A stretch of DNA of 27,445 nucleotides from positions 1 to 27,445 of IMG/VR virus record IMGVR_UViG_3300024246_000004. The stretch is one strand, 5' to 3'. A model generated the notes under the pieces. It did not search any database, was not told the origin of the DNA, and was given only the letters and a program-made list of their open reading frames with translations. Position numbers and translations under genes: made by a program. The first letter of the stretch is position 1. Each line of letters begins with the position of its first letter. This stretch comes from a virus. Lineage: Duplodnaviria > Heunggongvirae > Uroviricota > Caudoviricetes. This document shows positions 3,275 to 20,380 of this stretch, piece by piece.

Positions 3275-3364
3275 GCGCGGCGGCGGGTTTTGAATGGATC
3301 TTGGGTCCGCTATGGCCGCCGCAGGCCCGCTAGAACCAGCAGGACCTTCTGTACGTCTCCTCAA

Positions 3365-4552: not shown

Positions 4553-4553
4553 G

Positions 4554-4784
4554 TCAGTGTCCTTCCGTCGTGATGGTCCAGACCTGGCCGGTGTCGGTGT
4601 AGGACTGCCAGCGCGAGTCGGTGATCTCGTGGACCTGGCCGCCAAGCAGCAGCCAGCCCTCGTCGGGGGCCAGCAGCTGCTCCAGCAAGTCGTCGGTGAG
4701 GACGTCCAGGTCGTCCGAACCCGACTCGAAGCACCCCAGGAAGTTACGCAGGACCTGACGGAACTCGTCGCGCGCTTCACGCAT
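4554..4784 (-). CDS. Hypothetical protein, 76 aa (paralog family B)
   Basis: TGATG overlap; GWLLLGGQVHEI...VWTITT resembles 18493-18744 and 18737-19153. Confidence 0.7.
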   Translation of the reverse strand: MREARDEFRQVLRNFLGCFESGSDDLDVLTDDLLEQLLAPDEGWLLLGGQVHEITDSRWQSYTDTGQVWTITTEGH

Positions 4785-5197
4785 CAGGCGCGGTCCGTTC
4801 CGAGCCACGGTGCCTCGAAGTCCACGACGCCCTCGGCGTCCTCCAGGGCGACCACGCGGTCCCGGCTCAGATCCCGCACCGGTGGCTGGGCGAGCCGCAC
4901 GGCGATCTCCTTGAGCCACTTGCTCCGGTTGCCCCTATCAGCGGGGTTGGTCCCGTCGAACACGTTGTACTGATCGTAGAGGCCGAGCGCAAGCACGGCC
5001 TGCGAGTACGCACTGAGCGTGCCCTCGTTCGCCCGGCCCGCGAATGCCGGGTGGTTCCTCCACAGTTGCCCGAGAGGACAGTCCTGGTAGCTGGCCATAT
5101 CCAGCTCGGCCTCGTTGATGTAGTGCTCCCAGCCGGGCAGGTTCCGGTCCAGGAACACCGCCGCGATGCGCACCGTCTCAGGCACGAAGGTCTCCAT
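4784..5197 (-). CDS. Hypothetical protein, 137 aa (paralog family A)
   Basis: AAVFLDRNLPGWEHYINEAELDMASYQDCPLGQL; TGATG overlap. Confidence 0.8.
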   Translation of the reverse strand: METFVPETVRIAAVFLDRNLPGWEHYINEAELDMASYQDCPLGQLWRNHPAFAGRANEGTLSAYSQAVLALGLYDQYNVFDGTNPADRGNRSKWLKEIAVRLAQPPVRDLSRDRVVALEDAEGVVDFEAPWLGTDRA

Positions 5198-5403
5198 CAG
5201 AGCGTCTCCCCCCACGGCCAGAGGTTGCCGCCCTCGGCCTTCATGGTGTCGTCGAGGTAGTTCGCGATGTCGAGGATCATCTGCTTGACATCCTCGCGGT
5301 CCCCGTCCTCCAGGTCGTCCAGGCGCTGGTCCTCGGCGAAGAGGTTGCCCAGCAGGTCGGCCGCGATCTGCTGGGCCAGCTTGGTCTTCTCGGTGATGTC
5401 CAT
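5197..5403 (-). CDS. Small acidic hypothetical protein, 68 aa
   Basis: AGGAGG RBS before ATG 5403; stop overlaps next start. Confidence 0.75.
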   Translation of the reverse strand: MDITEKTKLAQQIAADLLGNLFAEDQRLDDLEDGDREDVKQMILDIANYLDDTMKAEGGNLWPWGETL

Positions 5404-5405
5404 GG

Positions 5406-5774
5406 TCAGCCCTCCTGGACCGCGCGGCGCGCCTCGATCAGGGTCACGAACTCGCTGGTGCTGTGGGAGAAGTTGTAGAGCCCGGCGTCGTCGATCCTTG
5501 CCTGGGAGCCGATGGCATCCCCGAGCTTCTCCAGCGCCTCCGTCCAGCCGTCGCAGTCCGCGAAGTACGGGTGCACGTTGAGCTGGTAGCCGAGGACGCA
5601 GCGGGAGACGCTCCACATCTGCAACTCGGGCAGGTGGATGTTCTCGTCCCAGCCGGGAACGACGTTGTCGAGCAGCAGCGCGGCCCGCGCGGTGGACTTG
5701 CCGATGCCGAGTTCCTGCGCGAGCGCCTCGACGGCGGCCTCGTCGGGCTCCGGAATGAGGGTCAGGTCGATCAT
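5406..5774 (-). CDS. Hypothetical protein, 122 aa (paralog family A)
   Basis: RAALLLDNVVPGWDENIHLPELQMWSVSRCVLGYQL; AAGGAGG RBS before ATG 5774. Confidence 0.8.
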   Translation of the reverse strand: MIDLTLIPEPDEAAVEALAQELGIGKSTARAALLLDNVVPGWDENIHLPELQMWSVSRCVLGYQLNVHPYFADCDGWTEALEKLGDAIGSQARIDDAGLYNFSHSTSEFVTLIEARRAVQEG

Positions 5775-5806
5775 ATGGACCTCCTTGTATCGGGATGGGC
5801 GGGGAG

Positions 5807-5881
5807 TCCCCCTGCGCGGACTCGAACCGTGCCTAACGCAGCTTGCTGAGGCTGCGCACCTCTCCGGTCGAGGCAGGGGGA
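5807..5881 (-). tRNA. Atypical tRNA-like element with 8-nt anticodon loop (CU-CAGC-AA)
   Basis: Minus strand: acceptor UCCCCCU(G)/(C)AGGGGGA; D arm CCUC-GACCGGA-GAGG; anticodon stem (GC)GCAGC/GCUGC(GU) with loop CUCAGCAA; T arm CACGG-UUCGAGU-CCGCG (one mismatch). No encoded CCA. Confidence 0.7.
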
Positions 5882-5946
5882 TGCGCCCGGCGGCGGGGAC
5901 ACCCTGGGTTGCGTGCGTCACTTGGCCGCCGGGCGGTCGTGCGGTG

Positions 5947-6702
5947 CTACTCGGCCGGGGTCGCGCTGCGGCGCCCGCTGATGATCTTGAGCCACTCCGA
6001 GCCGTAGCTCGCGAAGGCGGTCTCGTGGCCGAACGTCACGGGCTCCTGGCCACGCAGGAACTCGACGGTGTCGTTGTAGTTCACGTAATCCGAAAGCCTC
6101 CCGTCCTGGCTGGCGAGCTGGCCGAGGATGCACTGGTCAGTGGACCCCATGTCCAGCACGTCGAGGTCGATGAACTGCTCCCAGCCAGGCAGCTGTCGGT
6201 CGAGCAGTTCGGCGGAGCGCATGGCCGCCCTGGAAACTCCCACGGCGTCGGCGCGCTCTCGCAGGCCCTGCTCGCGCTCCCGGTGGGCTTCGCGCTCGGC
6301 CTGCACGCGCTCCCGCGCCTCCCGCGCCTCCCGCTCGGCCAGAGAGAACAGGCCCTCGGCGCCGGTGCGCGTCTCGTACGCCTGCTGCGCGCTGTTGCGC
6401 CTGGCCGCGTTGGTGCTGCGGTACCGCCGCACGATCCGCTGCACCTCGGGGGGCAGCGCCACGACCTCGGGCGGCGTCAGGCCGAAGTCGTCGCCGCGCT
6501 CGATGATCAGGGCCTCCACGGTGGCGACCTGCACGGGGGTGGCGAAGGACTGGAACTCGTTCCAGAGGCCCTGGACGGCCGTGTGCGGGGTGCGCCCGCC
6601 CAGGAGGGCGTCCATGTACAGCGTGTGGACGTGCGTGGCCAGGGTGGCGGCTTTCTCGGTGCCGATGAACTCGATGGGCGCTTCCTGGGTGTCTTCGGTC
6701 AC
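5947..6702 (-). CDS. Hypothetical protein, 251 aa; C-terminal family-A domain after a coiled coil
   Basis: AAGGAGG RBS before GTG 6702; RSAELLDRQLPGWEQFIDLDVLDMGSTDQCILGQL in the C-terminal third. Confidence 0.8.
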   Translation of the reverse strand: MTEDTQEAPIEFIGTEKAATLATHVHTLYMDALLGGRTPHTAVQGLWNEFQSFATPVQVATVEALIIERGDDFGLTPPEVVALPPEVQRIVRRYRSTNAARRNSAQQAYETRTGAEGLFSLAEREAREARERVQAEREAHREREQGLRERADAVGVSRAAMRSAELLDRQLPGWEQFIDLDVLDMGSTDQCILGQLASQDGRLSDYVNYNDTVEFLRGQEPVTFGHETAFASYGSEWLKIISGRRSATPAE

Positions 6703-6782
6703 AGGTCCTCCTTGGTTTCGGGGAAGGTGCGGCGTGGGGAGCGCTGGGCCTCGGTTCCTCCCTGGCCGCTCGGTTCGGGAGT

Positions 6783-6811
6783 AACGTATCACGGTGCGCG
6801 TGAAGCGTCAA
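6783..6811 (-). promoter_or_regulatory. Strong sigma70/HrdB-type promoter TTGACG-17-TACGTT
   Basis: Near-consensus hexamers with 17-bp spacer, about 80 nt upstream of GTG 6702. Confidence 0.75.
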
Positions 6812-7226
6812 CCTTCGCGGTGAGGTTCCTCGGGGGGCGTCCCGAGCGCGCGCCGCCGCGCCGCTCCACCTGCGAAGCCCACGCCCCGTCCAGGAGGTTG
6901 ATCCTGTAACTGTTTACGTTCGCCCACACGCTCCCGTCGAAGCCGTAGTCGTAGAGGGTCTGCGCGAGAGGCCACTTCCCGAACACCACGAAGGCGGCGC
7001 CGTGGTACGTGTCGGTGGATGCGGCGGCCAACTGCGGGTGCATCATGGGGAGCATGCGCTCGCGCACGCGTGGATCGTTGAGCATGAGCTGGCCCAGGAC
7101 GCACAAAACGGGGCTCGCCATGTTAATCCGCGCGGCGCGCACATGGAGCGCCCAGCCCGGCAGTTCGTCGTCGAGGAGGAGCGCACCACGCTGGGCTCGT
7201 GCGCTAGTCGAGGCGTTGTTGACCAT
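6789..7226 (-). CDS. Hypothetical protein, 145 aa (paralog family A)
   Basis: QRGALLLDDELPGWALHVRAARINMASPVLCVLGQL; GGGAG RBS. Confidence 0.78.
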   Translation of the reverse strand: MVNNASTSARAQRGALLLDDELPGWALHVRAARINMASPVLCVLGQLMLNDPRVRERMLPMMHPQLAAASTDTYHGAAFVVFGKWPLAQTLYDYGFDGSVWANVNSYRINLLDGAWASQVERRGGARSGRPPRNLTAKVDASRAP

Positions 7227-7252
7227 CGTTCTCCCAGGTCGGAGGTTCGGGG

Positions 7253-7289
7253 TTGCATTAACGTATCGTGTGCGCTAGGTTTACCGCAA
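7253..7289. promoter_or_regulatory. Overlapping divergent promoters
   Basis: Plus: TTGCAT(7253)-17-TAGGTT(7276). Minus: TTGCGG(7289)-18-TACGTT(7265). Sits exactly at the strand switch. Confidence 0.65.
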
Positions 7290-7317
7290 TCCGCACGGCT
7301 ACCAGGGAGGATCTCAC

Positions 7318-8316
7318 TTGCTTACTACTGGAATCGCGGTCCCCGCACGGTCCGACGCCTTCGGCACCCCCATCGACGAGATGTACGACAGGTACGGCGT
7401 GGATGTGGACTACGACCTGGCCACACTCTGGCTTGACGAGGACATCAACAAGCACAACCGCAAGTTCAAGAAGCTGCGGCTGGACCGCTACGCCGACGAC
7501 ATGTACAACGACCGGTGGTACCGCAACGGCGCCGCGATCTGCTTCGGCCGCGACGGCGAAGGCAACATCGTCATGGACGACGGACAGCACCGCCTGGAGG
7601 CGCTGCGCATCGCCGCCCGCCGCCGGGAAGCCACGGGGCGCCCGAAACTGGTCATCCGCTTCCTGGTCTACGGGGAGCTGAGCCGCAACGCCCGCCTGGT
7701 CATCGACAACAACGCGCCGCGCACCTACGCCGACGCCGGAGTCATCGGCCAGAGCATCCCCTACGCGAAAAGCGTCGTGCCCATCGGCAAGCGCGTCTAC
7801 AACTGGCTGGAGGGCCAGAACCCGGTACCGAGCGGCAACAACCGCCTGATCCCCAGCGAGCCGGTGTTCAACGAGTTCTACCTCAAGCACGTCAGCGCGC
7901 TCAACCAGGCGGCGTACTGGGGCGGCCACCTCAACCAGCGGATCAAGACGCCGGTGATCTCCGGCGGGTTCGCGCACTACCTGATCCACGAGGTGTCCGA
8001 CCCGCACTACGACGAGACCGACGTGGACGTCGCGCAGGCGTTCTTCCAGGCGGTCGCCACCGGCGCGGAGCTGATCGAGGGCCACCCGGCCAAGGCGCTG
8101 CGGGACACGGTCGTCAACCGGCGCGCGACCCGTACGCTCAACAGCGAGATCGCGCTGGCGTTGTACCTGCGCGCCTGGAACGCGTTCGCCCAGGAGCGGC
8201 TGTACCGGGCGGCGGTGCTGCCGGAGGGCATGACGGTGACCAGCGGCAACCTGGCGCTGCCAGTGCCCCCGAACCCGGACTGGACCGGGAGCGTGTACAG
8301 GTCGCTGCACCAGTGA
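7318..8316 (+). CDS. ParB/Srx-like (DGQHR-motif) domain protein, 332 aa
   Basis: NR....LDRYADDM...W...G.AI.F...GNIVMDDGQHRLEAL pattern; GGAGG RBS before TTG 7318. Confidence 0.7.
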   Translation: MLTTGIAVPARSDAFGTPIDEMYDRYGVDVDYDLATLWLDEDINKHNRKFKKLRLDRYADDMYNDRWYRNGAAICFGRDGEGNIVMDDGQHRLEALRIAARRREATGRPKLVIRFLVYGELSRNARLVIDNNAPRTYADAGVIGQSIPYAKSVVPIGKRVYNWLEGQNPVPSGNNRLIPSEPVFNEFYLKHVSALNQAAYWGGHLNQRIKTPVISGGFAHYLIHEVSDPHYDETDVDVAQAFFQAVATGAELIEGHPAKALRDTVVNRRATRTLNSEIALALYLRAWNAFAQERLYRAAVLPEGMTVTSGNLALPVPPNPDWTGSVYRSLHQ

Positions 8317-8375
8317 TACGCTAGTCGAGGCGGCCACAACCGGGCGGAACCCCTGATCCACACGCCGCCACGGAC

Positions 8376-8415
8376 GTACAGCCCGGCCTCGCGCCCCCCC
8401 CGGGCCGGGCTGTAC
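8376..8415 (+). terminator. 13-bp perfect hairpin after the DGQHR gene
   Basis: GTACAGCCCGGCC (8376-8388) / GGCCGGGCTGTAC (8403-8415). Confidence 0.55.
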
Positions 8416-8435
8416 ACACAGCTACAATGAGCGTC

Positions 8436-8517
8436 GCGGCACAGCCCCGGAGCGTTCGGGTTGTAGCTACCCGTTCGGGTTTCACGGGCAAGTTCCCTGA
8501 ACCCGGGGCTGTGCCGC
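8436..8517 (+). ncRNA. Candidate structured small RNA or leader (long interrupted hairpin)
   Basis: 15-bp perfect outer stem (8436-8450/8503-8517), inner GTTCGGG/CCTGAAC and CCCGT/ACGGG stems; begins about 7 nt after a TACAAT -10 box (8423-8428). Confidence 0.45.
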
Positions 8518-8622
8518 CGACAACGCGGGGAGTGTGCACCCCCCTTGGGGTGGTCGTATCGCCACCTCGAAACCCGACGGCGTCCCCTCCCGGCCAGGAC
8601 TGGCGCTGCGGTATTGCACGGC

Positions 8623-8701
8623 CTGTGCGGCTGGCTGCTTCCTCCCCGGAGCTGGCCCGGCTCCCCCACCCGCCGAGTGGGTTCGATTCCCACTGCACGG
8701 A
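8623..8701 (+). ncRNA. Degenerate tRNA-like element lacking a D stem
   Basis: Perfect T arm GUGGG-UUCGAUU-CCCAC (8677-8693); acceptor CUGUGCG/UGCACGG with two GU pairs; 5-bp stem with 7-nt loop GGAGC-UGGCCCG-GCUCC; no D stem, no U33. Confidence 0.35.
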
Positions 8702-8727
8702 CTTGTTCTTGCGTCGAAAGGAGCTCC

Positions 8728-8928
8728 ATGATCAATGCGATATACGTCCTCTGGCTGGCGGGCGCCCTGCTGACCATGCTATGGCTGGACAAGCGCGTGG
8801 ACCGCAGCGGCCTGATCCTTCCGGCCCGCTTCGGGCTCACCGTGATGGTGTGGCTGAGCAGCCTGCTGTTTCCGCTGACCTGGCTGGCCGTCGGCATCGG
8901 CCGCGTGAAGCGGCGGTGGCGCGCATGA
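8728..8928 (+). CDS. Small membrane protein, 66 aa
   Basis: AAAGGAG RBS; two hydrophobic helices, basic C-terminus. Confidence 0.75.
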   Translation: MINAIYVLWLAGALLTMLWLDKRVDRSGLILPARFGLTVMVWLSSLLFPLTWLAVGIGRVKRRWRA

Positions 8929-9098
8929 TCAAGGAGCTTGTCCGCCTAGCACTGTGCTGTGGCGGCGGCGCCGGTTTCCTGGTGTGGATGTTCTCTTCGC
9001 GCCTCACCGCCGGTGGGGCTTTGATCTCGGGCGTGGGCTTCGGCCTGTGCGTCCTGGGCGTCATCGAAGCGGTCCGCGACCTGCGCCGCCGAAACTAA
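8925..9098 (+). CDS. Small membrane protein, 57 aa
   Basis: ATGA overlap; two hydrophobic helices. Confidence 0.7.
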   Translation: MIKELVRLALCCGGGAGFLVWMFSSRLTAGGALISGVGFGLCVLGVIEAVRDLRRRN

Positions 9099-9182
9099 CG
9101 TAGGCAGTTTCTGGTAGGATAGAGACACAAGCGGCCCAAGTACGCGCGAAACCCAAACAAGCCCCGCCGCCGAAGGAGAACC

Positions 9183-9695
9183 ATGCCGAAGACCCCGACC
9201 GAGGTTACCGAAGACCGGTTGCGCCGCGCCGCAAACCGCCAGGGAAAGCGCCTGGTCAAGTCCCACGTGCGCGACCCGCGCTCCCCAGAATACGGCCGGT
9301 ACTTCTTGACCGAAGCCGACGGAGTGCTGGTGGCCTACACAGGCAAGCCGCGCGAGGACGCCCTGACGCTCGGGCAGGTCGAGGAGCGACTGCTCTACCC
9401 GCTGCACCAGGAGTCGCTCGGCCGCTGGTTTTCCCGCGAAGACCAGCTGCGCAACGGCTGGGCCGTGGACCGGGGCTACTTCGCGCGGGAAGTCGTGGAC
9501 ACCCGACGGTGGTACGAAGTGCGCCAGGTCATCTTCGAGGCGCCCGACGACGGCCACATGTACGCGGTGGACCTGTGCTACGGACTCACCGAATACCAGG
9601 AGATGGACCCGTTCGAGCACCTGGAGGAGACGGTCTGGTGCGCGCGCATGGAGCAGCGCCCGGTCACGGAGCTGCGTTGGGTCCCGGTGCAGTGA
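9183..9695 (+). CDS. Hypothetical, apparently two-module protein, 170 aa
   Basis: AAGGAG RBS; N-module RLRRAANRQG.RLVKS..RDPRSPEYGRY and C-module RWYEVRQVIF...YGLTEYQE. Confidence 0.8.
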   Translation: MPKTPTEVTEDRLRRAANRQGKRLVKSHVRDPRSPEYGRYFLTEADGVLVAYTGKPREDALTLGQVEERLLYPLHQESLGRWFSREDQLRNGWAVDRGYFAREVVDTRRWYEVRQVIFEAPDDGHMYAVDLCYGLTEYQEMDPFEHLEETVWCARMEQRPVTELRWVPVQ

Positions 9696-9696
9696 G

Positions 9697-10149
9697 ATGA
9701 CCGAGCGACCTCTCCCTTTCTCGCCCCCCCTGCGGATCCTGGTCACCGGTTCACGCATGTGGGACAAGCCGGGCCTGATCCACCACGTATTAGACGAGGC
9801 CGCCCGCGACTGGTGCGGGGAAGTCGTCATTGTGCACGGCCAGTGCGACCCGCGCGACAAGCTCGGCAAAGTCGTCCCGTGGGAGCGTGCGCTGACCTAC
9901 GACGACTTCCTGCTTGGAGCCGACTGGCACGCCGACCGCTACGCCGTCGCGCGGGGTTGGACACGCGAACCGTACCGGGCGAAGTGGGACCTGTACGGCA
10001 ATTCCGCTGGGCATCGGCGCAACGCGGAGATGGTGGCGCTTGGCGCGAACCTGTGCGTGGGCTTCCCGCTCGGGGACTCGCCGGGCACGCGCGGCTGCGT
10101 GGGGATGGCGCTCAAGGCGCACATTCCGGTGCGCACGGAAGAAGGCTGA
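9697..10149 (+). CDS. SLOG-superfamily protein (DUF2493/YspA-like), 150 aa
   Basis: RILVTGSR, VIVHG, GADWHAD, AGHRRNAEMV, SPGT...A....IPV motifs. Confidence 0.85.
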   Translation: MTERPLPFSPPLRILVTGSRMWDKPGLIHHVLDEAARDWCGEVVIVHGQCDPRDKLGKVVPWERALTYDDFLLGADWHADRYAVARGWTREPYRAKWDLYGNSAGHRRNAEMVALGANLCVGFPLGDSPGTRGCVGMALKAHIPVRTEEG

Positions 10150-10150
10150 C

Positions 10151-10795
10151 ATGCCGAGGCATGAGCTGGTGGACATTCCGGCGGGGCCGCTTACGCACAA
10201 GAACTGGATGCTGCCCGAACTTGGCACCGACCCCTACCCGGGCCGCGACGAGGGCGACGACTTGAACGGCTTCACTGTCCAGCATTTCGGCAGTCACCGA
10301 GGACTCTACGAGTTCTGCCGGAAGCGCCGGGTCGAGGAGTGGGGCGAGACCGTCCAGGCGTACGAGGCGAACCCGCGCCGGTTCGGCGCCGCATGGCGGT
10401 ACCTGGATGCCCACCCCATCCTGTACAAGTTCCGCATGAAGGAAGACGCGGAACTGTCCGACATCCTCCAGGAACGCAACCTGGAACACGAGTTCGGCGT
10501 GGACCGCATCTTCCACCGCGTTGCCGAATGGTGCTCCGAGCAGTGGGAGTGCGACGACGACGAGTGCGGGCACCGCAAGGTGGACATCCACTACATGGAG
10601 CTGGGCAAGTGGGAGTGGCCGCGCGACAAGGATGAGCGCGACCACGACTTCGAGCCGCGCCCCGGTGCCCACAGCTACCACGACTACGAGCTGGACGTGT
10701 ACGGGGGCAACTACGAGGAATGCATCCTCCAGGCCGCGTACCTCGTGTGGAAAAAGTACGGATCCGACCGCCGTATCGCAGACAAGGAGACCTGA
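10151..10795 (+). CDS. Hypothetical protein, 214 aa
   Basis: GAAGG RBS before ATG 10151; acidic and aromatic rich; TGATG overlap downstream. Confidence 0.75.
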   Translation: MPRHELVDIPAGPLTHKNWMLPELGTDPYPGRDEGDDLNGFTVQHFGSHRGLYEFCRKRRVEEWGETVQAYEANPRRFGAAWRYLDAHPILYKFRMKEDAELSDILQERNLEHEFGVDRIFHRVAEWCSEQWECDDDECGHRKVDIHYMELGKWEWPRDKDERDHDFEPRPGAHSYHDYELDVYGGNYEECILQAAYLVWKKYGSDRRIADKET

Positions 10796-11082
10796 TGGGG
10801 TGGAACAGCGGCAACGACATCTTCGACCCTGTTGCCGAGGCGCTCGTCGAGACCGACGCCGATGACGTGGTCCTGCGGCACGCCCTCAGTATCCTGATCG
10901 GCGTACTCCAAAGCGAGGACTGGGACACCGAGTATGAGTCGCTGGAGCGTTTCGCGAACTATCCGCCGGTCGTCGCGGCCTTCCGCGAGCACGGCATCAT
11001 CCTTAAGTGCGGCTGGCCAGACGGGGGCGGCCCCTTCTGCGGGCTGCCGCGCAACCACCAAGGCGATCACAAGGAGAAGTGA
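10795..11082 (+). CDS. Hypothetical phage protein, 95 aa
   Basis: AAGGAG RBS; MGWNSG..IFD...DWDT..ESL pattern; C-terminal C..C...H..H. Confidence 0.75.
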   Translation: MGWNSGNDIFDPVAEALVETDADDVVLRHALSILIGVLQSEDWDTEYESLERFANYPPVVAAFREHGIILKCGWPDGGGPFCGLPRNHQGDHKEK

Positions 11083-12108
11083 ATGCGCGCTCTGAGTAAG
11101 GTCAAGCAGGCCCTGATCAACCACGTTGCCTTCGTGCTCGACGGCTCCTACTCCATGAACCCGTGGCGCAACGACGTCGTCTCGGTGACCGACGACCTGA
11201 TCAAGTTCCTGGCGCGGCGCTCCAAGGAGCTGAACCAGGAGACGCGCGTCACTGTCTATGTTTTCAGCGACAGTTCCGTGTGGTGCGTCTTCTACGACGT
11301 GGATGTGCTGCGCATGCCGTCGATCAAAGACCACTACCGGCCCGACGGCGGAACGCCGCTGCTCAAGGCCACGCTCACCGCGCTGGACGAACTCGACGAG
11401 ACGGCCAAATTGCACGGCGACCACGCCGACCTGGTCTACGTCCTGACCGACGGCGAGAACAACCGCGACTACGGCATGCAGTCGATGCTGGAGAAGCGGC
11501 TGGCCGCGCTGGCGGGGAACCGCACCGTGGGCATCCTCGTGCCCGACCAGAACGGCCGCAGGCACGCCGAAGGGTTCGGGTTCCCGCCGGACAACGTCGC
11601 GATCTGGGACCCTACTTCGGCCGAGGGTGTGGCGCGCGGCGGTCGCACCATCCAGGACGCCACCGAGTCGTACATGACCGGCCGTTCCGTGGGCGTCCGG
11701 GGCACGCGCACGCTGTTCTCCACCGGCGTGGACGCGGTCAACGACGCCACGGTGAAGTCCGCGCTGACCCCGCTGCCCTACTCGCAGTACAAGCTGATCC
11801 CGGTGGGGCCGGAGGATGCCGTCATTCGGCCTTTCGTGGAGGGCTGCGGGTACACCTACCGCATCGGCGATGCCTTCTACCAGCTCATGAAGCCCGAGAC
11901 GATCCAGGCCCGCAAGGAGATCATGATCGTCGAGAACGCCACGGACAAGGTTTTCACCGGCCGCGCCGCCCGCGACCTGATCGGGCTGAAGGACCAGAAC
12001 GAGCGCGTCAAGCCCGACGCGAACAAGCTCTACACCATCTATGTCCAGTCCACCAGCGTCAACCGCAAGCTGCCCGCTGGTAGCAAGCTGTTGCTGCTCA
12101 CCCGCTAG
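11083..12108 (+). CDS. von Willebrand factor A (vWA) domain protein, 341 aa
   Basis: MIDAS elements VAFVLDGSYSM, GGTPL, YVLTDGENN; about 120-aa C-terminal extra domain. Confidence 0.88.
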   Translation: MRALSKVKQALINHVAFVLDGSYSMNPWRNDVVSVTDDLIKFLARRSKELNQETRVTVYVFSDSSVWCVFYDVDVLRMPSIKDHYRPDGGTPLLKATLTALDELDETAKLHGDHADLVYVLTDGENNRDYGMQSMLEKRLAALAGNRTVGILVPDQNGRRHAEGFGFPPDNVAIWDPTSAEGVARGGRTIQDATESYMTGRSVGVRGTRTLFSTGVDAVNDATVKSALTPLPYSQYKLIPVGPEDAVIRPFVEGCGYTYRIGDAFYQLMKPETIQARKEIMIVENATDKVFTGRAARDLIGLKDQNERVKPDANKLYTIYVQSTSVNRKLPAGSKLLLLTR

Positions 12109-12122
12109 CACAAGGAGGAACC

Positions 12123-12266
12123 ATGGGCACGAAAGACCCCGAAGGCGCGCAGGACAAGAGCAGGCAGGAGAAGCAGGACGCGCTCGACAAGAGCAGCCGC
12201 GAATTCAAGGGCGAACCGGAGCCGAAGAACAGCAACCCTGAGGGCGTTCCGGAAGGGGACAGGTGA
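12123..12266 (+). CDS. Small charged, low-complexity protein, 47 aa (not in ORF track)
   Basis: AAGGAGG RBS then ATG 12123; MGTKDPEGAQDKSRQEKQDALDKSSREFKGEPEPKNSNPEGVPEGDR; stop overlaps next GTG. Confidence 0.7.
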   Translation: MGTKDPEGAQDKSRQEKQDALDKSSREFKGEPEPKNSNPEGVPEGDR

Positions 12267-12601: not shown

Positions 12602-12673
12602 GGGCTCCCCGAGGGGCCGCTCTTGGTTCGAAACCCAAAGTACGTCCGCCCCTCGCCGCACAGGGGAGTCTCT

Positions 12674-13884: not shown

Positions 13885-13890
13885 TATACT
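13862..13890 (+). promoter_or_regulatory. Putative promoter TGGACG-17-TATACT
   Basis: Hexamers read directly; predicted start falls at the 5' foot of the 13899 hairpin. Confidence 0.5.
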
Positions 13891-13898
13891 ACGTTAGT

Positions 13899-13955
13899 CC
13901 CCGGACGCGGCCAGGCCCACAGCGAAACCCTTCGGGTCGTCCGCCGCGTCCGGGG
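13899..13955 (+). other. Structured leader: 12-bp stem enclosing a UUCG-capped hairpin
   Basis: CCCCGGACGCGG (13899-13910) / CCGCGTCCGGGG (13944-13955); internal ACCC-TTCG-GGT. Confidence 0.5.
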
Positions 13956-14008
13956 CGATACGTCAAGCAGCTTGCTTTCACCATCGAATTCCACCATGCT
14001 GAGCAACA

Positions 14009-14734
14009 GTGATCGTTGTCCGGCAAGGTGGTGTCGTGTCAGTCTGTCCAGGAAATTGCAACTCGGCTTGGCGTCAAGCGGAGGCTGAGGCGATTCCGCA
14101 CGCAACCACACCACGCCAGGGGTCCCCCGTGTGGTGTTCTTCGTGTGCCCAGGGCATTGAGAGCGCCCTGCGCGCACTGCCGCAGGACCTGGCCAGCCTG
14201 CGCGTCGAGTCCGAGAACGGTTCCACGCCGCAGCACGAACGCGTTTCCGGCACCAAGCCGCACCCCCTCCACCCGCGCGAATCCTTTACGTTCCTCGCGG
14301 AGGACATCTACGGGGTCGTCGTCGCATGGGAAGACGACGTCCGCGACCAGCGCCTCTTCAGCGGTCGGCGCGCTCGCGGCACGCAGGGACGGCAAGTCCA
14401 GGAAGCCGTCCGGTTTCTGACCTCCCACTTCGACTGGCTCATGCAGAGCCATCCACACGCCGAAGCCGTCGTGGACTTCGGACGGGAGATCACCGCGCTG
14501 CACCGCCGGGCGATCAAGGCGATCAAAGCCGACGAGCCGCCGCTGCGCCGGTGCGAGGGCGTGCGCTGCCCGAAGTGCATGATGAAAGCCCTCGTCCATG
14601 AACAGCACTACGACAAGTCCCTGACGGGTTACGTCCTATGTCAGGGCTGTGGGAATCTGCTGACGCAGGCCGAGTACGAGGAGCACCTCAAGCGGGAGGC
14701 GAAAGGCGCGCGCAAGCTGGTGCGCCGTGTTTAA
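14009..14734 (+). CDS. Multi-Zn-finger protein, possible late transcription regulator, about 241 aa
   Basis: CPGNC, CSSC, CPKC and CQGC pairs; position beside HTH and RusA-like genes. Start uncertain; function inferred. Confidence 0.65.
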   Translation: MIVVRQGGVVSVCPGNCNSAWRQAEAEAIPHATTPRQGSPVWCSSCAQGIESALRALPQDLASLRVESENGSTPQHERVSGTKPHPLHPRESFTFLAEDIYGVVVAWEDDVRDQRLFSGRRARGTQGRQVQEAVRFLTSHFDWLMQSHPHAEAVVDFGREITALHRRAIKAIKADEPPLRRCEGVRCPKCMMKALVHEQHYDKSLTGYVLCQGCGNLLTQAEYEEHLKREAKGARKLVRRV

Positions 14735-14960
14735 ATACAGCCTGACGGACCCGCTGTTCGTGGCGATGACCTTCGAGGAGGTCGTCGGTGAGACCGGCCG
14801 CTCCGTGCGCACCGTGCAGCGCTGGGTCAAGGAACGCAAACTCACCGGTTACCAGTCATCCGATGGTACGCTCATCTTCGTGAGGCGCGATGTGCTCCGC
14901 GTGGAGGCGGAGACGTCGGTGCGGCGAGGGCGGCCGGGGGCTCGGCCGCCAACGCTATGA
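14727..14960 (+). CDS. Small HTH DNA-binding protein (excisionase/MerR-like), 77 aa
   Basis: MTFEEVVGETGRSVRTVQRWVKERKLTGY pattern. Confidence 0.8.
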   Translation: MFKYSLTDPLFVAMTFEEVVGETGRSVRTVQRWVKERKLTGYQSSDGTLIFVRRDVLRVEAETSVRRGRPGARPPTL

Positions 14961-15340
14961 ACGACATCAGAATCCTGCTTCCGGCGGGCATGAGTCTGCC
15001 CAACGCCAACAAGAAGGTGCACTGGCGTACCACCTGGCGTCAACAGCAGGCGATCAAGGACCGCACCTATGAGATCGCGATGCTGATGCGCGTACGAGAC
15101 CTCGGCAGGGCCACGTGCACAGCAGTGATCCATCCAGACGTGCGCACGCGGCGATTCGACCCAGCCAATTGGTCGCCCTCGGTCAAGCCCGCAATCGATG
15201 CGGCCGTGCTTGCTGGGGTACTTCGGGATGATTCCTCGAAGTACCTGACGGCGGTCACCTATGTCGCGGGCGCCCCGGTTCCGGGATGGCGCTTGGAGCT
15301 GGTGTTTACTCCGCTTCCGGGGGCTCCGGCCACCACGTAG
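14957..15340 (+). CDS. rusA: RusA-like Holliday junction resolvase, 127 aa
   Basis: RRFDPANWSPSVKPAIDAAVLAGVLRDDS matches the D..N..K...D.....DD catalytic pattern. Confidence 0.75.
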   Translation: MNDIRILLPAGMSLPNANKKVHWRTTWRQQQAIKDRTYEIAMLMRVRDLGRATCTAVIHPDVRTRRFDPANWSPSVKPAIDAAVLAGVLRDDSSKYLTAVTYVAGAPVPGWRLELVFTPLPGAPATT

Positions 15341-15734
15341 TCTCCTCGACGAGCGTCACCCGCTCTCCGCTGAGCCTGTCGTGGACCTCCACGGCGTGCG
15401 CACGGACGCCGTAGTTCCGGGGGTTGTGCGGTTCCAGGTCGAGCGTGAGGCGCACAGGGATGGCTCCGTCCTCCCACTCGTCGTTTTCCTCGCCCTCCAG
15501 GTCGAGTGTGCACACGACGTAGTCGCGGATCATCGGTTCGACCTCGTCGAGCGTACAGGCCTGCGTGGCGCCCTTCTCGATGCCGGGGCCCTGGATGCCG
15601 AAAATCTCCCAGCCGCCCTTCCAGGGCCGGATGGTGGCGTCGTAGCCCCGCTCCTCGGCCTGCGCCCGCTTCGCCTCGCGCTCGCGGCCCTCCCACGCGA
15701 CGTGGCCGCCCGCCGGTTCCCAGATATCGCTCAT
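15306..15734 (-). CDS. HicB-like antitoxin-fold protein, 142 aa
   Basis: Y.ATIR.W.GGWEI....ATQACTLDEVEPMIRDYV resembles the actinobacterial HicB N-domain (TQA..L.E.E.M.RD); GAGG RBS. Confidence 0.55.
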   Translation of the reverse strand: MSDIWEPAGGHVAWEGREREAKRAQAEERGYDATIRPWKGGWEIFGIQGPGIEKGATQACTLDEVEPMIRDYVVCTLDLEGEENDEWEDGAIPVRLTLDLEPHNPRNYGVRAHAVEVHDRLSGERVTLVEETTWWPEPPEAE

Positions 15735-15735
15735 C

Positions 15736-16032
15736 TCATCCTCGCTTTCGGTGGCCCATTTGAATGCGTCCGGCGGCTACGAGGGCCCGGAAGCATGTGA
15801 GCGTGCAGTACAGCAGGTGGTCAGGGCCCGACTTGCAGTGCAGTTCGTAGCCGCAGTTCGCGCAGGCCGAAACGTGGAAGCCGACGTCGCAGGGGAAGCC
15901 GCCGATCGAGCCCAGAAGGTCGCCGTAGTAGCGGCACTGGTGCCCGTTTCCATCCGCCTCGCGCCGCTCGCCAGGGTAATACGCCTTAGCCACTGCCTCA
16001 TCCTCCCAGAAACGCGGCGCCCCCCTCCGCAT
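15736..16032 (-). CDS. Cys-rich hypothetical protein, about 98 aa
   Basis: C..., CANC, HC, C...C; fills the gap in the leftward block; start and RBS weak. Confidence 0.5.
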   Translation of the reverse strand: MRRGAPRFWEDEAVAKAYYPGERREADGNGHQCRYYGDLLGSIGGFPCDVGFHVSACANCGYELHCKSGPDHLLYCTLTCFRALVAAGRIQMGHRKRG

Positions 16033-16069
16033 ATCCGGCGAAGGGGGGCTACTGAGTTAGGGTTTGTAG

Positions 16070-16326
16070 TCAGCGCCATGGCTGATGGCCGTGTGGCCAG
16101 TCCCTGCCGCGTTGGCACAGTCACCGGGCATTCGTGAAGGTTGAGTACGGTGCGAGCTCCCACTGCTCCACCAGCGCATGGAGAGCGCTGGGCCAGGATC
16201 GAACTGGCGACCTCACCGGAATCGTGCCTCGGGTTCTGTGTTACTCCACGCTGTCGCATTGTTTCATTCTGGAGCGGTATTCTGAGGTGTGATTCTCAGT
16301 TTTAGCTTCAGTTTGAACTTGCGCTC
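16070..16326 (-). ncRNA. Circularly permuted tRNA-like (YrlA/Y-RNA-like) ncRNA; core 16109-16251
   Basis: 5'->3': CGGUG, AGGUC (variable loop), T arm GCCAG-UUCGAUC-CUGGC, acceptor hairpin CCAGCGC-UCUCCAU-GCGCUGG, UG, D arm GAGC-AGUGGGA-GCUC, G, CACCG. All four tRNA helices are perfectly paired. The anticodon stem continues as a long interrupted helix (GGCA/UGCC, CCG/CGG, CACAG/CUGUG, GCGUGG/CCAACGC). Extra 5' and 3' hairpins set the outer bounds tentatively. Confidence 0.85.
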
Positions 16327-16332
16327 GGGACT

Positions 16333-16361
16333 AACGTACCACGTCTAGACGCCGAACACAA
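16333..16361 (-). promoter_or_regulatory. Putative ncRNA promoter TTGTGT-17-TACGTT
   Basis: Overlaps the 3' end of the upstream CDS; predicted +1 near 16326 coincides with the first paired G of the GAGCG/CGCUC stem. Confidence 0.6.
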
Positions 16362-17082
16362 ACGCCATGACCGCAGCGCCCGGGTCCTGCGGCGCGGCCT
16401 CCACGGAGTTCGCCTGCTCACGGGCGTGCAGCACCGCCTCGCGCAGCGCGTACAGACGCCCCTGCATGGCCTGCACCTGCGAGGCCGGAAGCGCGCCGGA
16501 GAAGTTCACCAGCTCCCAGTAGCCCGCCAGGTCGTCCCGCGAGACCTCCCTGACCTGCGCCGGGTGCTTGTCGGTGGCGGGGGCCGCGATGACGAAGTCG
16601 GTGATCTTCCGGGTGCGCACCGTCTCCACCGGTTCGGTCTTCCACTGGCCCGCCGTGGTCTCGTCACGGCTCCAGCTCATCGCCGGGTCCAGCGTCGGCA
16701 GGGTGCTGACCAGCGCCAGCATCTCGCCAACCTGCTTCTCCAGGAACAGCAGGTAGCTGACCGGCGCGTCGTGCACGAGGGTCGTGCCGTTCACCACGAC
16801 GTCGGCCTTCGCCTGGGTGTTGGCGAACTCCTTGACCGCGACGATGTCGAACAGCCGGGCCAGACTCGCGCCGACCAGCGTGAGGATCTCCGGCGCGGTG
16901 TACTGCACGCGCTTGCTCTCGGACGGGAGGCGGTCACCTTCCTCGTCCTTCGGCCTGTAGGTCTTGGAGAAGCCGCTGAGCGCGTTGCCGTTGGCCAGGC
17001 CGCGCCTGGCTTCGTCGAGGGCCCGGCTGGTGGTGTCCTGAGCGGACTTGAGGACGGGCAGGATCTGGTGCAGACGGGGCAT
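16345..17082 (-). CDS. Conserved actinobacterial protein (recalled as DUF7873-like), 245 aa
   Basis: L.QI..V.K, SKTYRPKDEEGDRLP.ESKRVQ, PVSYLLFLEKQ, ATDKHPAQV, FSGALPA, AREQAN motifs; AGGAGG RBS. Confidence 0.85.
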   Translation of the reverse strand: MPRLHQILPVLKSAQDTTSRALDEARRGLANGNALSGFSKTYRPKDEEGDRLPSESKRVQYTAPEILTLVGASLARLFDIVAVKEFANTQAKADVVVNGTTLVHDAPVSYLLFLEKQVGEMLALVSTLPTLDPAMSWSRDETTAGQWKTEPVETVRTRKITDFVIAAPATDKHPAQVREVSRDDLAGYWELVNFSGALPASQVQAMQGRLYALREAVLHAREQANSVEAAPQDPGAAVMAFVFGV

Positions 17083-17219
17083 GGTGAACCTCCTGAGGTT
17101 GAAGGCGAGTGTGGGCGCGGCGGCGCAGGTATGGGTTTCGATTTCACCCGGGCCGCGCGGATTTGCGTTAGCGTATCACGCGAGCGCCCCGCAGGACCGG
17201 AGTCTCGCGGGGCGATGCG

Positions 17220-17480
17220 TCAGATCTTGTCCGGATCCACGTACGTCGCGTACGTATCGAGGCTCTCCAGCCTGCCCGCGAACACGCCGCAGACCTGGAG
17301 CGTGCCGCCCTTCGCGCGGGCGTCCTGCTGCGCCATCGTCTCGGCCTGGCGCGGGAGGTCCGTCGGATAGTACTCCAGCCACCTCTCCTGGGTCTCCACC
17401 CAGAAGCCGACGACCGTGCACCAGTCCATCTGCTCCTTGAGCTCCTCGGCGAGGATCTCGGCGGCGTCGCGCGGCGGCAT
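17220..17480 (-). CDS. Hypothetical protein, 86 aa
   Basis: TAATG overlap with the lipoprotein stop. Confidence 0.7.
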   Translation of the reverse strand: MPPRDAAEILAEELKEQMDWCTVVGFWVETQERWLEYYPTDLPRQAETMAQQDARAKGGTLQVCGVFAGRLESLDTYATYVDPDKI

Positions 17481-18049
17481 TACTTGCGGCCCGCGCTGCG
17501 CGACACGCTGTAGCTGCTGCGCGAGCCCGACGAAGAGGAGTTGGAGTTGCTGCGCGACCCGCCGCCGTAGGACGTGGTGGTGCGGCTGCCACTGCCGAAC
17601 GAGGTGGTGCTGACCTTCGAGCCGGTCACCGTGCCGCCGGTGGACGACTTGTAGACGGCGCGGGAGGACAGGGTACTGACGCCGCGCTGGAACGAGGAGG
17701 AGTGGTTCAGCGTCACGATCGTGACGCTGGTGTAGTGCGACCGGTAGCTGGTCGGAACGTAGGTGTTGTAGTACACCGGGCTCGACCAGTAGTCCCAGTA
17801 CTCTTCCTCCCACGACATCGGCATCGGCGTGGGCATGGACCCGGCCGGGCACAGGCCCGCCGCCATCAGGTTGTACGCCTCCTGGGTGCTGGTCAGGTAG
17901 TAGCACTCCCGGACGTTGCTTACGGTCTGCCAGTATGCAGCGGGCGCGTACGTGACGGGCGCGCTGTCGTCCCAGCCGCTCCCGCAGGCGCTCAGCCCAG
18001 CGGCCAGGCCAGCTGCCGTGAGGGCCCCCGCGATGATCTTCTTGGACAT
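17480..18049 (-). CDS. Lipoprotein with Ser/Gly/Thr-rich tail, 189 aa
   Basis: MSKKIIAGALTAAGLAAGLSA|C lipobox; AAGGGAG RBS; low-complexity C-terminus. Confidence 0.85.
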   Translation of the reverse strand: MSKKIIAGALTAAGLAAGLSACGSGWDDSAPVTYAPAAYWQTVSNVRECYYLTSTQEAYNLMAAGLCPAGSMPTPMPMSWEEEYWDYWSSPVYYNTYVPTSYRSHYTSVTIVTLNHSSSFQRGVSTLSSRAVYKSSTGGTVTGSKVSTTSFGSGSRTTTSYGGGSRSNSNSSSSGSRSSYSVSRSAGRK

Positions 18050-18083
18050 CCAATCTCCCTTCGTCGGTGGGCTTGCTGCGTTG

Positions 18084-18165
18084 AGCGTATACGTTATGAC
18101 GACAGAGTACAAGTTCTTCGAGCCGACAGTTTAGCTTGCATTCGAGCCGACGATCGTGATACGTT
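18084..18165. promoter_or_regulatory. Divergent promoter pair
   Basis: Minus: TTGTAC(18112)-17-TACGCT(18089). Plus: TTGCAT(18136)-18-TACGTT(18160) with extended TG. At the strand switch. Confidence 0.65.
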
Positions 18166-18244
18166 CATCCCCAATCCGGCGGCCAGACTCGTACCGAACT
18201 CCATAACTCCTGCGCTGTTGGACCGTCTCACGAAAGGAGGTCGG

Positions 18245-18496
18245 ATGGACACGACTGGCACCACGTGGCACGAGGCCAGCATCACCGTGGACACCTTCAT
18301 CAACGCCGACGGCGAGGAACGCCCCGGGTACGTCTTCAAACTGAACCACCCGCCGGACTGCCGCGCTGACTGCTGCCTCTTGGAGCAGCAGTACTGGCCG
18401 CCGGAGTTCCACGAGATCCCCGGCATCGGCGACTACCGCGTGCGGTACGTCCCGTTCGACGGCGGCTCAGACGGACTCCAGTGGGAATTCGCGTGA
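18245..18496 (+). CDS. Hypothetical protein, 83 aa
   Basis: AAGGAGG RBS before ATG 18245. Confidence 0.75.
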   Translation: MDTTGTTWHEASITVDTFINADGEERPGYVFKLNHPPDCRADCCLLEQQYWPPEFHEIPGIGDYRVRYVPFDGGSDGLQWEFA

Positions 18497-18744
18497 ACGG
18501 CGAGGCGAAGCTGCGCGAGGCGCTGGAATCCCTGTTCTGCCCCTACGACTGGCACGACATGGAGGGCAACGCCATCGCCCCCTCCGGGTCCACGGTGGAC
18601 GCAGTGCTCGACGTCCTCAAGGGCGGCGAGTGGCTGATCACCGGCGGCACGGTCCAGCACGTGTGGTCCGCGCGTTACGACGGCTCGGTGGTAGAGCACG
18701 AGGACGCCTGGCACCAGAACTGGCGCGTGCGCACCGATGGCTGA
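18493..18744 (+). CDS. Hypothetical protein, 83 aa (paralog family B)
   Basis: GTGA overlap; VDAVLDVLKGGEWLITGGTVQHV...NWRVRT. Confidence 0.7.
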   Translation: MNGEAKLREALESLFCPYDWHDMEGNAIAPSGSTVDAVLDVLKGGEWLITGGTVQHVWSARYDGSVVEHEDAWHQNWRVRTDG

Positions 18745-19153
18745 GCACCGCTCCACGCGCTGCCCGGCCTGCGGGCGCTTCGTGAAGATCCTGCTCGACG
18801 GGACCTTCGCGAAGCACACGAAGCTCAAGGACTTGCGCTCAGGCGAGTGCCCGATGTCCCGGCACCGGCCGCCCACGCCCGAGGCCGCCGAGCTATTGCG
18901 CGAGGTGCTGCGGGCCGCGTTCTGGGAGCACTTCGGGCTGGCTTACGAGGAGTGGGGGCCCGGCCAGGACGACGAGTCCACCGCCGACGCCGCGATCGAG
19001 GCCTTGCGTACCGGCAGTTTCCTGGTCGTGGACGGCCAGATCTACCTCGTGACCAGCAGTCACGAGGTGAGCGAAACCGCTGGCGAACGCCAGTGGACCA
19101 TCACGACAAACGACGAAGGAGACGCATATGGCGCTCGGTTCCAGCTGGATTGA
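18737..19153 (+). CDS. Zn-ribbon + family-B domain protein, 138 aa
   Basis: CPAC...KH...CP ribbon, then ADAAIEALRTGSFLVVDGQIYLV...QWTITT. Confidence 0.72.
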   Translation: MAEHRSTRCPACGRFVKILLDGTFAKHTKLKDLRSGECPMSRHRPPTPEAAELLREVLRAAFWEHFGLAYEEWGPGQDDESTADAAIEALRTGSFLVVDGQIYLVTSSHEVSETAGERQWTITTNDEGDAYGARFQLD

Positions 19154-19658
19154 CCGCATGTGGGACAAGGAGCCGCCGGAGCCGGTGATCGGAAACCGGT
19201 CCGGGCTGACGGTCACGGAGAAGAAGATCCTGCTGGCGTTCGCGCAGGGCTACGAGACCCAGGAGGTGGCCGAGATGAACAAAATGGGCTTGGCCACGTT
19301 CGAGCGGCAGCCTCTGGGGCGTCTGCGCCTGAAGTTGCACGCCCAGGACGCGCGGCGCATGGTGAAGCTGGCCTACGAGCTGGGCGCGCTGGAACTGTCC
19401 GGACCTCCGCTGGAGGGCGTGCACGTCCCCGAGCTCTATCTCGACGTCCTGCTCCTGGTGCCCGACGGCTACCAGAACCACGAGATCTCCGAGAAACTGG
19501 ATCGCCCGCTCGGCACGGTGCGCACGCACATGGGGGTCCTCTCGACGGCGTTCATGGTGAAGCGCGGGATGGGTGGCCGTTCGCAACTGGCGTCGCGCTG
19601 TTTCGAGTTCGGCATCGTTCCCGGCGCGCACGTCTCGACGAAGCCGAAGGCCAAGTAG
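19128..19658 (+). CDS. Tandem LuxR-type HTH regulator, 176 aa
   Basis: Two units: LTVTEKKILLAFAQGYETQEVAE...KLAYELG and LDVLLLVPDGYQNHEISEKLDRPLGTVRTHM...FEFG; AAGGAG RBS. Confidence 0.78.
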   Translation: MALGSSWIDRMWDKEPPEPVIGNRSGLTVTEKKILLAFAQGYETQEVAEMNKMGLATFERQPLGRLRLKLHAQDARRMVKLAYELGALELSGPPLEGVHVPELYLDVLLLVPDGYQNHEISEKLDRPLGTVRTHMGVLSTAFMVKRGMGGRSQLASRCFEFGIVPGAHVSTKPKAK

Positions 19659-19757
19659 TTTCCGGCGCCGGACCCGGGGCCAGAACCCACTCTTTGCGCG
19701 CGCCAGGAAGGCCGCGCCCCGGGCCTGGCGTATTGGGGGGTCATTTTTTTCAAATTG

Positions 19758-19786
19758 TTGCCGCTGGACTTCCCGCGCGCTAGGAT
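19758..19786 (+). promoter_or_regulatory. Promoter TTGCCG-17-TAGGAT, followed immediately by TAACGTA
   Basis: Hexamers read directly, upstream of ATG 19868. Confidence 0.6.
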
Positions 19787-19867
19787 TAACGTATACCGGG
19801 CGGCCAACATGTGCACGCGACCCAGACTCCCCCCGCCGCCCCTCTCCGACGTCAGCTAGGAGGACAC

Positions 19868-20380
19868 ATGCCAGTACTCTCCGAAGACCCCGAGATCGAA
19901 GCCACCGTCCGCGCCGCCCGAGGTGCCGCGCACCTGGACGCCCAATTCCCCGGATGGGAGGCGTACATCGACGTCGAGGCCCTGGACCTCTACAACGGGG
20001 AACTGTGCGTCCTGGGCCAGCTGGGCAACAGGCACCCCGGCTTCGCCGACATCGAACGGCGCGCCTTCAGCTCCTCGTACGCGGATGCGGTCAAGTACCT
20101 GTGTCCGTCCCTGGACTTCACGGACAGCGGTCCCACAGCGCTGGCGTGGCCGCTGCAACACGGCTTCCTCGCCATTCCCGATCACCACCCCGAGTTCGAC
20201 GGGGTGGGCTACGAGCGCCTGCTGCCCGCGTGGAAGGCGGCGATCGGCAGGCGCCAGGAGCGCTTCGCGGTGCGGCCGTCCTCCACGCTGCCGGTCGAGG
20301 CGGCGACGCGGAAGCAGGACGAGGCGTTCCGCGACGAGTACGAGGCGCGTGGGATCTTCGCCGACTCGGAGGCCGAGTGA
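19868..20380 (+). CDS. Hypothetical protein, 170 aa (paralog family A)
   Basis: ARGAAHLDAQFPGWEAYIDVEALDLYNGELCVLGQL; AGGAGG RBS region. Confidence 0.8.
   Translation: MPVLSEDPEIEATVRAARGAAHLDAQFPGWEAYIDVEALDLYNGELCVLGQLGNRHPGFADIERRAFSSSYADAVKYLCPSLDFTDSGPTALAWPLQHGFLAIPDHHPEFDGVGYERLLPAWKAAIGRRQERFAVRPSSTLPVEAATRKQDEAFRDEYEARGIFADSEAE

Follow-up and report, generated by a model that had tools for sequence, protein, structure and literature searches.

Around 28 cultured Streptomyces phages of the Beephvirinae, namely, Stella (gp85), FlowerPower (gp83), Manuel, Immanuel3, WRightOn, JXY1 and some 20 others, encode one copy each of a protein that is always annotated as 'hypothetical protein'. 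In these phages the gene has a fixed place in the rightmost block of small genes, together with a helix-turn-helix (HTH) gene and an ArdA-like gene, the latter an ArdA-like antirestriction gene in the case of Stella. Here, we analyze five genes of the same domain family, which are encoded in the first 27,445 bases (hereafter the window) of the 91,445-bp virus record IMGVR_UViG_3300024246_000004 (66% G+C). The Beephvirinae proteins carry the family domain at their N-terminus, with L-D, P-G-W and C-x-x-C-V-L-G-Q present; Stella gp85 is recognized by a family hidden Markov model (HMM) with an E-value of 1e-23, and a further HMM search gave 2e-17. The Beephvirinae homologs differ from the window copies, however, in that they occur in single copy per genome, are fused to an unrelated C-terminal half of around 110 amino acids (aa), and give no match or a weak match to the window copies in BLAST searches. 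Two further systems invite comparison by their general features: T4 AsiA, a small, acidic, all-helical early anti-sigma protein; and polyimmunity-type families, such as SUKH/Imm of polymorphic toxin systems, whose small domains are found in multi-domain fusions and also in tandem genes that have diversified. The five genes of the window are old paralogs, each of which encodes the same compact all-alpha domain, mostly acidic, with around 105 residues and six to seven helices. Their family is very large, is carried essentially by phages, and has neither a name nor a characterized member or detectable structural relative.

An initial annotation of the window, made from its letters alone, had proposed a family of five members that are highly diverged outside a shared motif, and our analysis bears this out. 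The five open reading frames (ORFs) were confirmed at their coordinates (Table 1), with L-D-x3-P-G-W, C-x-L-G-[QY] located 16 residues after the Trp, and C-terminal W/F-x3-I/V-x2-R in each of them; they have a G+C content at third codon positions of 0.85-0.96 and good ribosome-binding sites, the annotated starts being those with a good Shine-Dalgarno sequence. Pairwise BLASTP comparisons among the five gave E-values from 3e-6 to 4e-12, with 27-47% identity over partial lengths, and a MAFFT alignment showed 31-34% identity with A, L-D, P-G-W, C-x-L-G and the C-terminal R invariant, Tyr replacing Gln after C-x-L-G only in paralog 3. Leave-one-out HMMs searched against all six-frame ORFs of the genome found every omitted copy, with E-values from 3.7e-12 to 2.9e-19 (1.3e-12 for paralog 1). 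A scan of the whole genome with the five-copy HMM found no sixth copy, the next match having an E-value of 0.38, and a six-frame regular-expression scan of the genome located the motif in these five ORFs only. This similarity points, far beyond chance, to true homology.

Comparison with sequences from elsewhere places the divergence of the five copies in the past. In a quick maximum-likelihood tree, four of the five paralogs are nearer to outside relatives (49%, 56%, 59% and 61% identity) than to one another (27-47%). First, the nearest relative of paralog 1 is P0155, with 61% identity. Second, paralog 3 is closest to the C-terminal domain of P0017 (56%). Third, P0009, P0011, P0012 and P0027 are relatives of paralog 4, with 51-59% identity and a common tail motif, PPVRDL, which exemplifies the C-terminal tails that are kept within subfamilies. 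Fourth, P0022, P0039, P0015 and P0020 are related to paralog 5, with up to 49% identity. No outside relative of paralog 2 was seen, the representative P0008 being the window's own copy. Among the best metagenomic relatives, P0012 is on a contig of 120 kb, P0007 on one of 66 kb, and P0011 and P0155 are on 20.5 kb. Since the outside relatives are closer than the copies of the same genome, the duplication must be old and the copies retained, which favors distinct roles over a recent amplification. In paralog 2, the family domain forms the C-terminal half (5950-6333, residues 154-280 of a 281-aa frame), preceded by a Glu/Arg-rich linker and by around 125 N-terminal residues that are unrelated to the family and had no match in a Pfam search. 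Four of the five products are acidic.

Table 1. Coordinates and main properties of the features of the window discussed in the text. pI, isoelectric point; nt, nucleotides.
Feature	Coordinates	Strand	Description
Paralog 1	6789-7226	-	Operon gene 1, heading the leftward operon; 145 aa; pI 10 from basic C-terminal tail; HMM E 9.8e-46
Paralog 2	5947-6702	-	Operon gene 2; 251 aa; GTG start behind AAGGAGG
Paralog 3	5406-5774	-	Operon gene 3; 122 aa; pI 4.3
Acidic protein	5197-5403	-	Operon gene 4, between paralogs 3 and 4; 68 aa; very acidic, pI 4.1; not a family member; no Pfam match
Paralog 4	4784-5197	-	Operon gene 5; 137 aa; pI 4.7
Seven small genes	2725-4784	-	Operon genes 6-12; no Pfam matches
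GerE/LuxR-type HTH regulator	2156-2728	-	Operon gene 13, the last; Pfam GerE, E 2e-14
Second GerE / sigma-70 region 4-type HTH gene	19128-19658	+	Directly upstream of paralog 5; Pfam GerE, E 1.1e-6
Paralog 5	19868-20380	+	170 aa; pI 4.7; C-terminal extension of ~40 aa; isolated, 12.6 kb from the cluster
Promoter-like word GATACGTTA	7259-7267	-	Extended -10, TGa-TACGTT; TTGCGG 18 nt upstream; in divergent intergenic region ahead of paralog 1
Promoter-like word GATACGTTA	6782-6790	-	TTGACG 17 nt upstream; inside the 3'-terminal part of paralog 1 and in front of paralog 2
Further sites of GATACGTTA in the window	8315, 13957, 16332, 17169, 18088, 18158, 19787		
tRNA-like element	5806-5880	-	Between paralogs 2 and 3; called by ARAGORN
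Rad52/Rad22-family recombinase	161-1198	+	Non-structural arm; E 7e-18
VWA-domain protein	11083-12108	+	Non-structural arm
DUF7873 protein, full-length	16345-17082	-	Non-structural arm; E 2e-83

The size of the family became apparent when a HMMER profile of the five paralogs was searched against 1.84 billion cluster representatives, of which 6586 matched at E≤1e-3 and 87 at E≤1e-10. A typical member is a stand-alone protein of 95-140 residues, and the median pI of the family is 4.75. The consensus comprises an N-terminal helix ending in R-G-A-A-L-L-D, followed by x3-P-G-W, I-D-L-x2-L-D-M-x-S-x3-C-V-L-G-Q-L, Y, L, G-F and a last helix with W-x3-I-x2-R-R. No known function had been assignable to the five genes in the initial annotation, and this holds after all of our searches, as none of them led from the profile to a characterized family. 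The five paralogs matched nothing in Pfam-A 2025 at E≤1, except for one stray match at 0.11, and nothing in PHROGs v4 at E≤0.01; likewise, 49 diverse family members had no match in Pfam, NCBIfam 20 or PADLOC 2.0, and a single one of them had one PHROGs match, at an E-value of 0.01. A profile search of PDB sequences reached a best E-value of 0.43, a plasmid collection held no family match, and the 'named' clusters of the ESM Atlas gave no usable match. A word-indexed homolog search yielded at least four matches of similar length and at least eight longer ones. Members carry only the name 'hypothetical protein' in the sources searched, and a search of the literature on the motif and on actinophage anti-defence genes found nothing on the family.

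To describe the domain in structural terms we relied on AlphaFold2 models built from a 130-sequence alignment, namely, one of paralog 5, with a predicted local distance difference test (pLDDT) score of 90, and one of a compact member of 114 residues, with a pLDDT of 93 and a predicted template modeling (pTM) score of 0.85. Both models are all-alpha, with six to seven helices and no strands, and in both a short central helix has the invariant Cys at its N-terminus. Foldseek searches against PDB and BFVD returned nothing at E≤1e-3, and two VIA searches of 48,161 PDB representatives gave no fold match. The models thus describe a confidently predicted fold without a detectable solved relative, an absence of matches that is not in itself proof of a new fold. 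Two known classes of cysteine proteins were considered and rejected. A thioredoxin-like CxxC oxidoreductase does not agree with models that lack strands, with an invariant Cys that is the C-terminal one of the pair, or with the single Cys of the window copies; and a papain-like or NlpC-P60 cysteine peptidase does not agree with an all-alpha model and the lack of an invariant His.

The residues that characterize the family were then counted among the top 130 matches, with the numbering of paralog 5. Pro28 and Trp30 occur in all 130 sequences, Cys47 and Gln51 in 129, Asp24 and Trp122 in 128, and Arg129 in 121 of 128, although the query profile introduces a bias into these numbers. As an independent check, we used 19 domains chosen by a pattern in the first helix alone. 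In this sample Cys, Asp and Trp are essentially invariant, with the Cys in place in 18 of 19 domains and two residues upstream in the nineteenth, whereas the Gly of P-G-W is variable. A second Cys, two or three residues upstream of the invariant one, is present in 57 of the 130 sequences (44%; CxC in 34, CxxC in 23) and in the cultured Stella protein, but in none of the five window copies, which have a single Cys at the site. His occupies the H-G-F position in 34 of 116 sequences, and no His is invariant. Overall, most of the conserved positions are hydrophobic or form turns and a few are polar, while surfaces and tails are variable.

Because the domain is multiplied both as genes and within chains, is acidic and is phage-specific, a modular binding domain fits best. 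Our tentative reading, which we hold with somewhat less than even confidence, is that the domain may be a self-contained binding module with one small conserved site, and not a conventional enzyme, which has been multiplied to cover several host targets. A hydrophobic core (L, the PGW turn, I, L, the C-V-L-G-Q-L central helix, Y, L, GF, W and I) would hold a small polar site composed of Asp, Cys, Gln, Arg and two Trp residues, which would probably contact a common ligand or partner, the Cys probably being a reactive thiol or one that forms a metal site or a disulfide. The variable surfaces, together with the subfamily-specific C-terminal tails, would direct each paralog to its own target, and the copies that phages accumulate, either in separate genes or in fusions of two to six domains, would serve to address several host targets. 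The likeliest of these would be components of host defence or host physiology that are met early in infection.

Several considerations weigh against this proposal. The conservation counts on which it draws carry the bias mentioned above, and the independent sample is small and keeps the Gln in just 15 of its 19 domains. Moreover, we infer the grouping of the conserved polar residues into one exposed site from their sequence position alone, and Cys, Asp, Trp and Gln are nearly invariant, more so than would be expected of a pure scaffold, and could mark an active site instead. The genomic context adds to these doubts: most other phage records are single-copy, the early region of any phage commonly contains HTH genes, and an all-against-all BLAST of the neighbors from 17 loci found no conserved neighbor, which makes guilt by association weak. 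A bolder version, in which the family would be a novel fold class of counter-defence or host-takeover modules with a reactive cysteine site at their core and a wide distribution among actinophages and huge phages, with paralogs and arrays that each neutralize a different host target or immune signal, seems to us unlikely.

The same cysteine, located at the N-terminus of the central helix, may be read as the nucleophile or redox center of a small thiol-dependent enzyme or redox protein, the target of which could be a host small molecule, nucleotide or protein thiol. Asp, Gln and Arg would assist this Cys, as would a resolving Cys in about 44% of members. The retention of this Cys in both samples is consistent with such an enzyme, as are the occurrence of a second Cys at position -2 or -3, much more often than the background frequency of Cys would give, and the six consecutive conserved residues, C-V-L-G-Q-L, that begin a helix. 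However, neither a His nor another classical catalytic residue is invariant alongside the Cys, the predicted all-alpha fold is unlike the thioredoxin, papain-like, Erv/ALR and AhpD folds, and the five window copies do without the second Cys. In CxxC oxidoreductases it is the N-terminal Cys that is indispensable, which is opposite to the situation found here. Furthermore, chains of up to six domains are unusual for enzymes, and these arrays disfavor a conventional one, such that we regard a thiol enzyme as unlikely. The earlier suggestion that the conserved Cys is possibly catalytic or metal-binding finds some support in the conservation of this residue and in the frequent second Cys, but no classical partner is invariant and the arrays of up to six domains speak against a conventional enzyme.

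The multiplication of the domain can be followed beyond the window. Among the top matches there are around 20 two-domain tandem proteins and one six-domain protein of 674 aa. A survey of domain fusions revealed no informative partner. Multiple copies are also found as separate genes, namely, three family genes in head-to-tail order, each in a different frame, within a fragment of a provirus (IMGVR_UViG_3300006169_000159, locus L016, 4570-5719), and four dispersed copies in a 595-kb uncultured phage (LR756511.1, locus L022; 23398-23763, 32995-33351, 74042-74185 and 134319-134696). Five other viral records hold a single copy each. A separate case is P0161 (622 aa, ENA), in which the family domain (residues 3-104) is in frame with a complete adenylosuccinate lyase (Lyase_1 and ASL_C); this single fusion may be an artefact of gene calling or assembly.

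The family is found mainly in viruses. In the ESM Atlas, viruses make up 83-91% of the clusters closest to paralog 5, and the loci recovered by the first-helix pattern come from ten IMG/VR viral contigs as well as from Actinoallomurus, Streptosporangium, Lentzea, Acidimicrobiales and one Saccharibacteria genome. Several of the carrier records are proviruses according to IMG/VR. Among 200 further sampled genomes of Actinomycetes, the class of Lentzea, a single one had a copy; therefore, the bacterial copies look like prophage cargo. The Saccharibacteria locus (L009, 5977-6324), from a metagenome-assembled genome of an uncultured Candidatus Saccharibacteria (0.7 Mb, 55% G+C), is a family member outside Actinomycetota. 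Actinobacteria are the hosts of Saccharibacteria.

The source of the window is an uncultured soil actinophage, rich in tRNAs, whose record also codes for a portal protein, a large terminase, an SU10-like capsid protein, two RNA ligases and an SPFH protein; all five paralogs are in its non-structural arm. No close relative of this phage, as needed for cluster synteny, was found by megablast and tblastn against 50,697 phage records, nor among viral and metagenome contigs, for which the queries were paralogs 4 and 5, a subfamily alignment and the neighboring 332-aa gene. At the loci of other family members, 118 neighbor genes from 16 loci were compared with Pfam. The domains encountered, namely, HTH_31/HTH_3, HNH, RecT, ERF, YqaJ, DnaB/AAA_25, Bro-N, ANT and DNA methylase, show that the family resides where phage genomes keep their genes for regulation, recombination and replication.

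This location raises the alternative that the proteins are accessory factors of phage DNA replication, recombination or transcription without any role in host conflict, for instance adaptors that bind a phage recombinase, a helicase or an HTH/sigma-like regulator. Members elsewhere adjoin RecT/ERF/YqaJ, DnaB-type helicase, HNH and HTH genes, and in the window the cluster lies between the Rad52-type recombinase and other non-structural genes, with a GerE-type HTH gene in or next to both paralog loci. The N-terminal domain of the DnaB helicase, which is also all-alpha and of around 100 residues, is the sole fold that recurs in the weak list of Foldseek. Yet no particular neighbor is conserved, five retained and diverged paralogs and six-domain fusions are ill-suited to a single housekeeping adaptor, and the acidic nature of the proteins makes direct DNA binding unlikely. 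On balance, we consider an accessory role of this kind rather improbable.

With regard to gene organization, the initial annotation had placed four of the copies in one leftward block, and they are indeed all within a tightly packed 13-gene operon on the minus strand, which runs from 7226 to 2156 (Table 1). The start of paralog 4 overlaps (ATGA) the stop of the upstream 68-aa gene. The HTH proteins at the end of this operon and ahead of paralog 5 are only weakly alike (E-value of 0.002). Strong promoters had also been proposed for several of the copies, which is borne out in part: extended -10-like words precede paralogs 1 and 2, two of the five genes, with TTGCGG and TTGACG, respectively, at -35 distance, whereas a generic scan for sigma-70 promoters and terminators called nothing near the paralog genes. 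The word concerned, GATACGTTA, occurs nine times in the window with up to one mismatch, against 1.1 copies expected, and 36 times in the genome, of which 18 are exact; these sites are mostly intergenic and co-oriented with gene blocks, and their frequent context is gt-GATACGTTA-gtc. GATACGTTA is probably the main promoter signal of the phage. By eye, a GC-rich hairpin can be seen at 19690-19760 on the plus strand, with an eight-T run some bases later and then TTGCCG-N17-TAGGAT ahead of paralog 5, a region in which the scan made no call.

The early anti-defence or host-takeover role suggested initially is plausible when these circumstances are considered together, namely, the non-structural arm, the promoter-like motifs, the HTH gene at the end of the operon, the acidic products, a diversified family with multiple copies and the ArdA-like neighbor in Stella. 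A generic early accessory role, or one in the recombination region, fits equally well. The layout resembles that of anti-CRISPR (Acr) operons with anti-CRISPR-associated (Aca) regulators, where small, acidic, fast-diverging genes behind a strong promoter are followed by an HTH gene at the end, a likeness in layout only. In contrast with these operons, the fold searches showed no sequence or fold similarity to a solved Acr, the HTH protein is of the GerE/LuxR type and not of a described Aca family, and typical Acr families are far less conserved at specific residues than the family described here. T4 AsiA shares with our proteins a small, acidic, all-alpha nature, and sigma-70 region 4-like (GerE) HTH genes are nearby in the window, but neither VIA search gave a fold match and there is no sequence similarity. 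Likewise, tandem genes and multi-domain fusions of small domains are shared with polyimmunity-type families, from which the present family differs in that no homology was detected and in being viral and not tied to toxin cassettes; to our knowledge, an invariant Cys is not a feature of such families.

Small, acidic, multi-copy products encoded behind promoter-like words could also act as sponges. A conserved pocket of aromatic residues, Arg and Asp would trap a host immune signal derived from a nucleotide, the several copies and strong promoters providing stoichiometric amounts of the protein. The invariant residues, namely, two Trp, Tyr/Phe, Arg, Asp and Gln, are of the ligand-binding type, as this would require. 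However, no association with any defence system was seen, and no solved chain showed fold similarity; Tad1, Tad2 and Acb2 were absent from the match lists of the fold searches, their presence among the chains searched being assumed. We find a sponge very unlikely.

Whichever role applies, the family represents well-defined viral dark matter that curated resources have missed, with thousands of clusters, sharply conserved residues and a confident fold without a solved neighbor, and it is ready for immediate addition to Pfam or PHROGs. It is also experimentally tractable, since cultured Streptomyces phages, such as Stella, FlowerPower and Manuel, hold one copy each. Should the cysteine site be functional, it would constitute a new biochemical module of the phages of Actinomycetota, the main antibiotic producers, and the five retained paralogs would provide a natural specificity series. 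If the domain were a structural adaptor only, it would still be a useful new domain definition, yet a biologically ordinary one.

Lastly, the leftward operon contains a tRNA-like element (Table 1), 22 kb away from the main tRNA island of the phage. Its acceptor-like stem and its anticodon stem are each of 7 bp, its T arm is canonical (GGTTCGAGTCC) and its anticodon loop has 8 nt, for which ARAGORN reports an anticodon of four bases, cagc. A comparison with Rfam gave no family at E≤1, and the element folds better than its shuffled versions (z-score of -3.3). The element could be a tRNA, either decayed or similar to a frameshift suppressor, or a signal for RNase P/Z processing within the operon.

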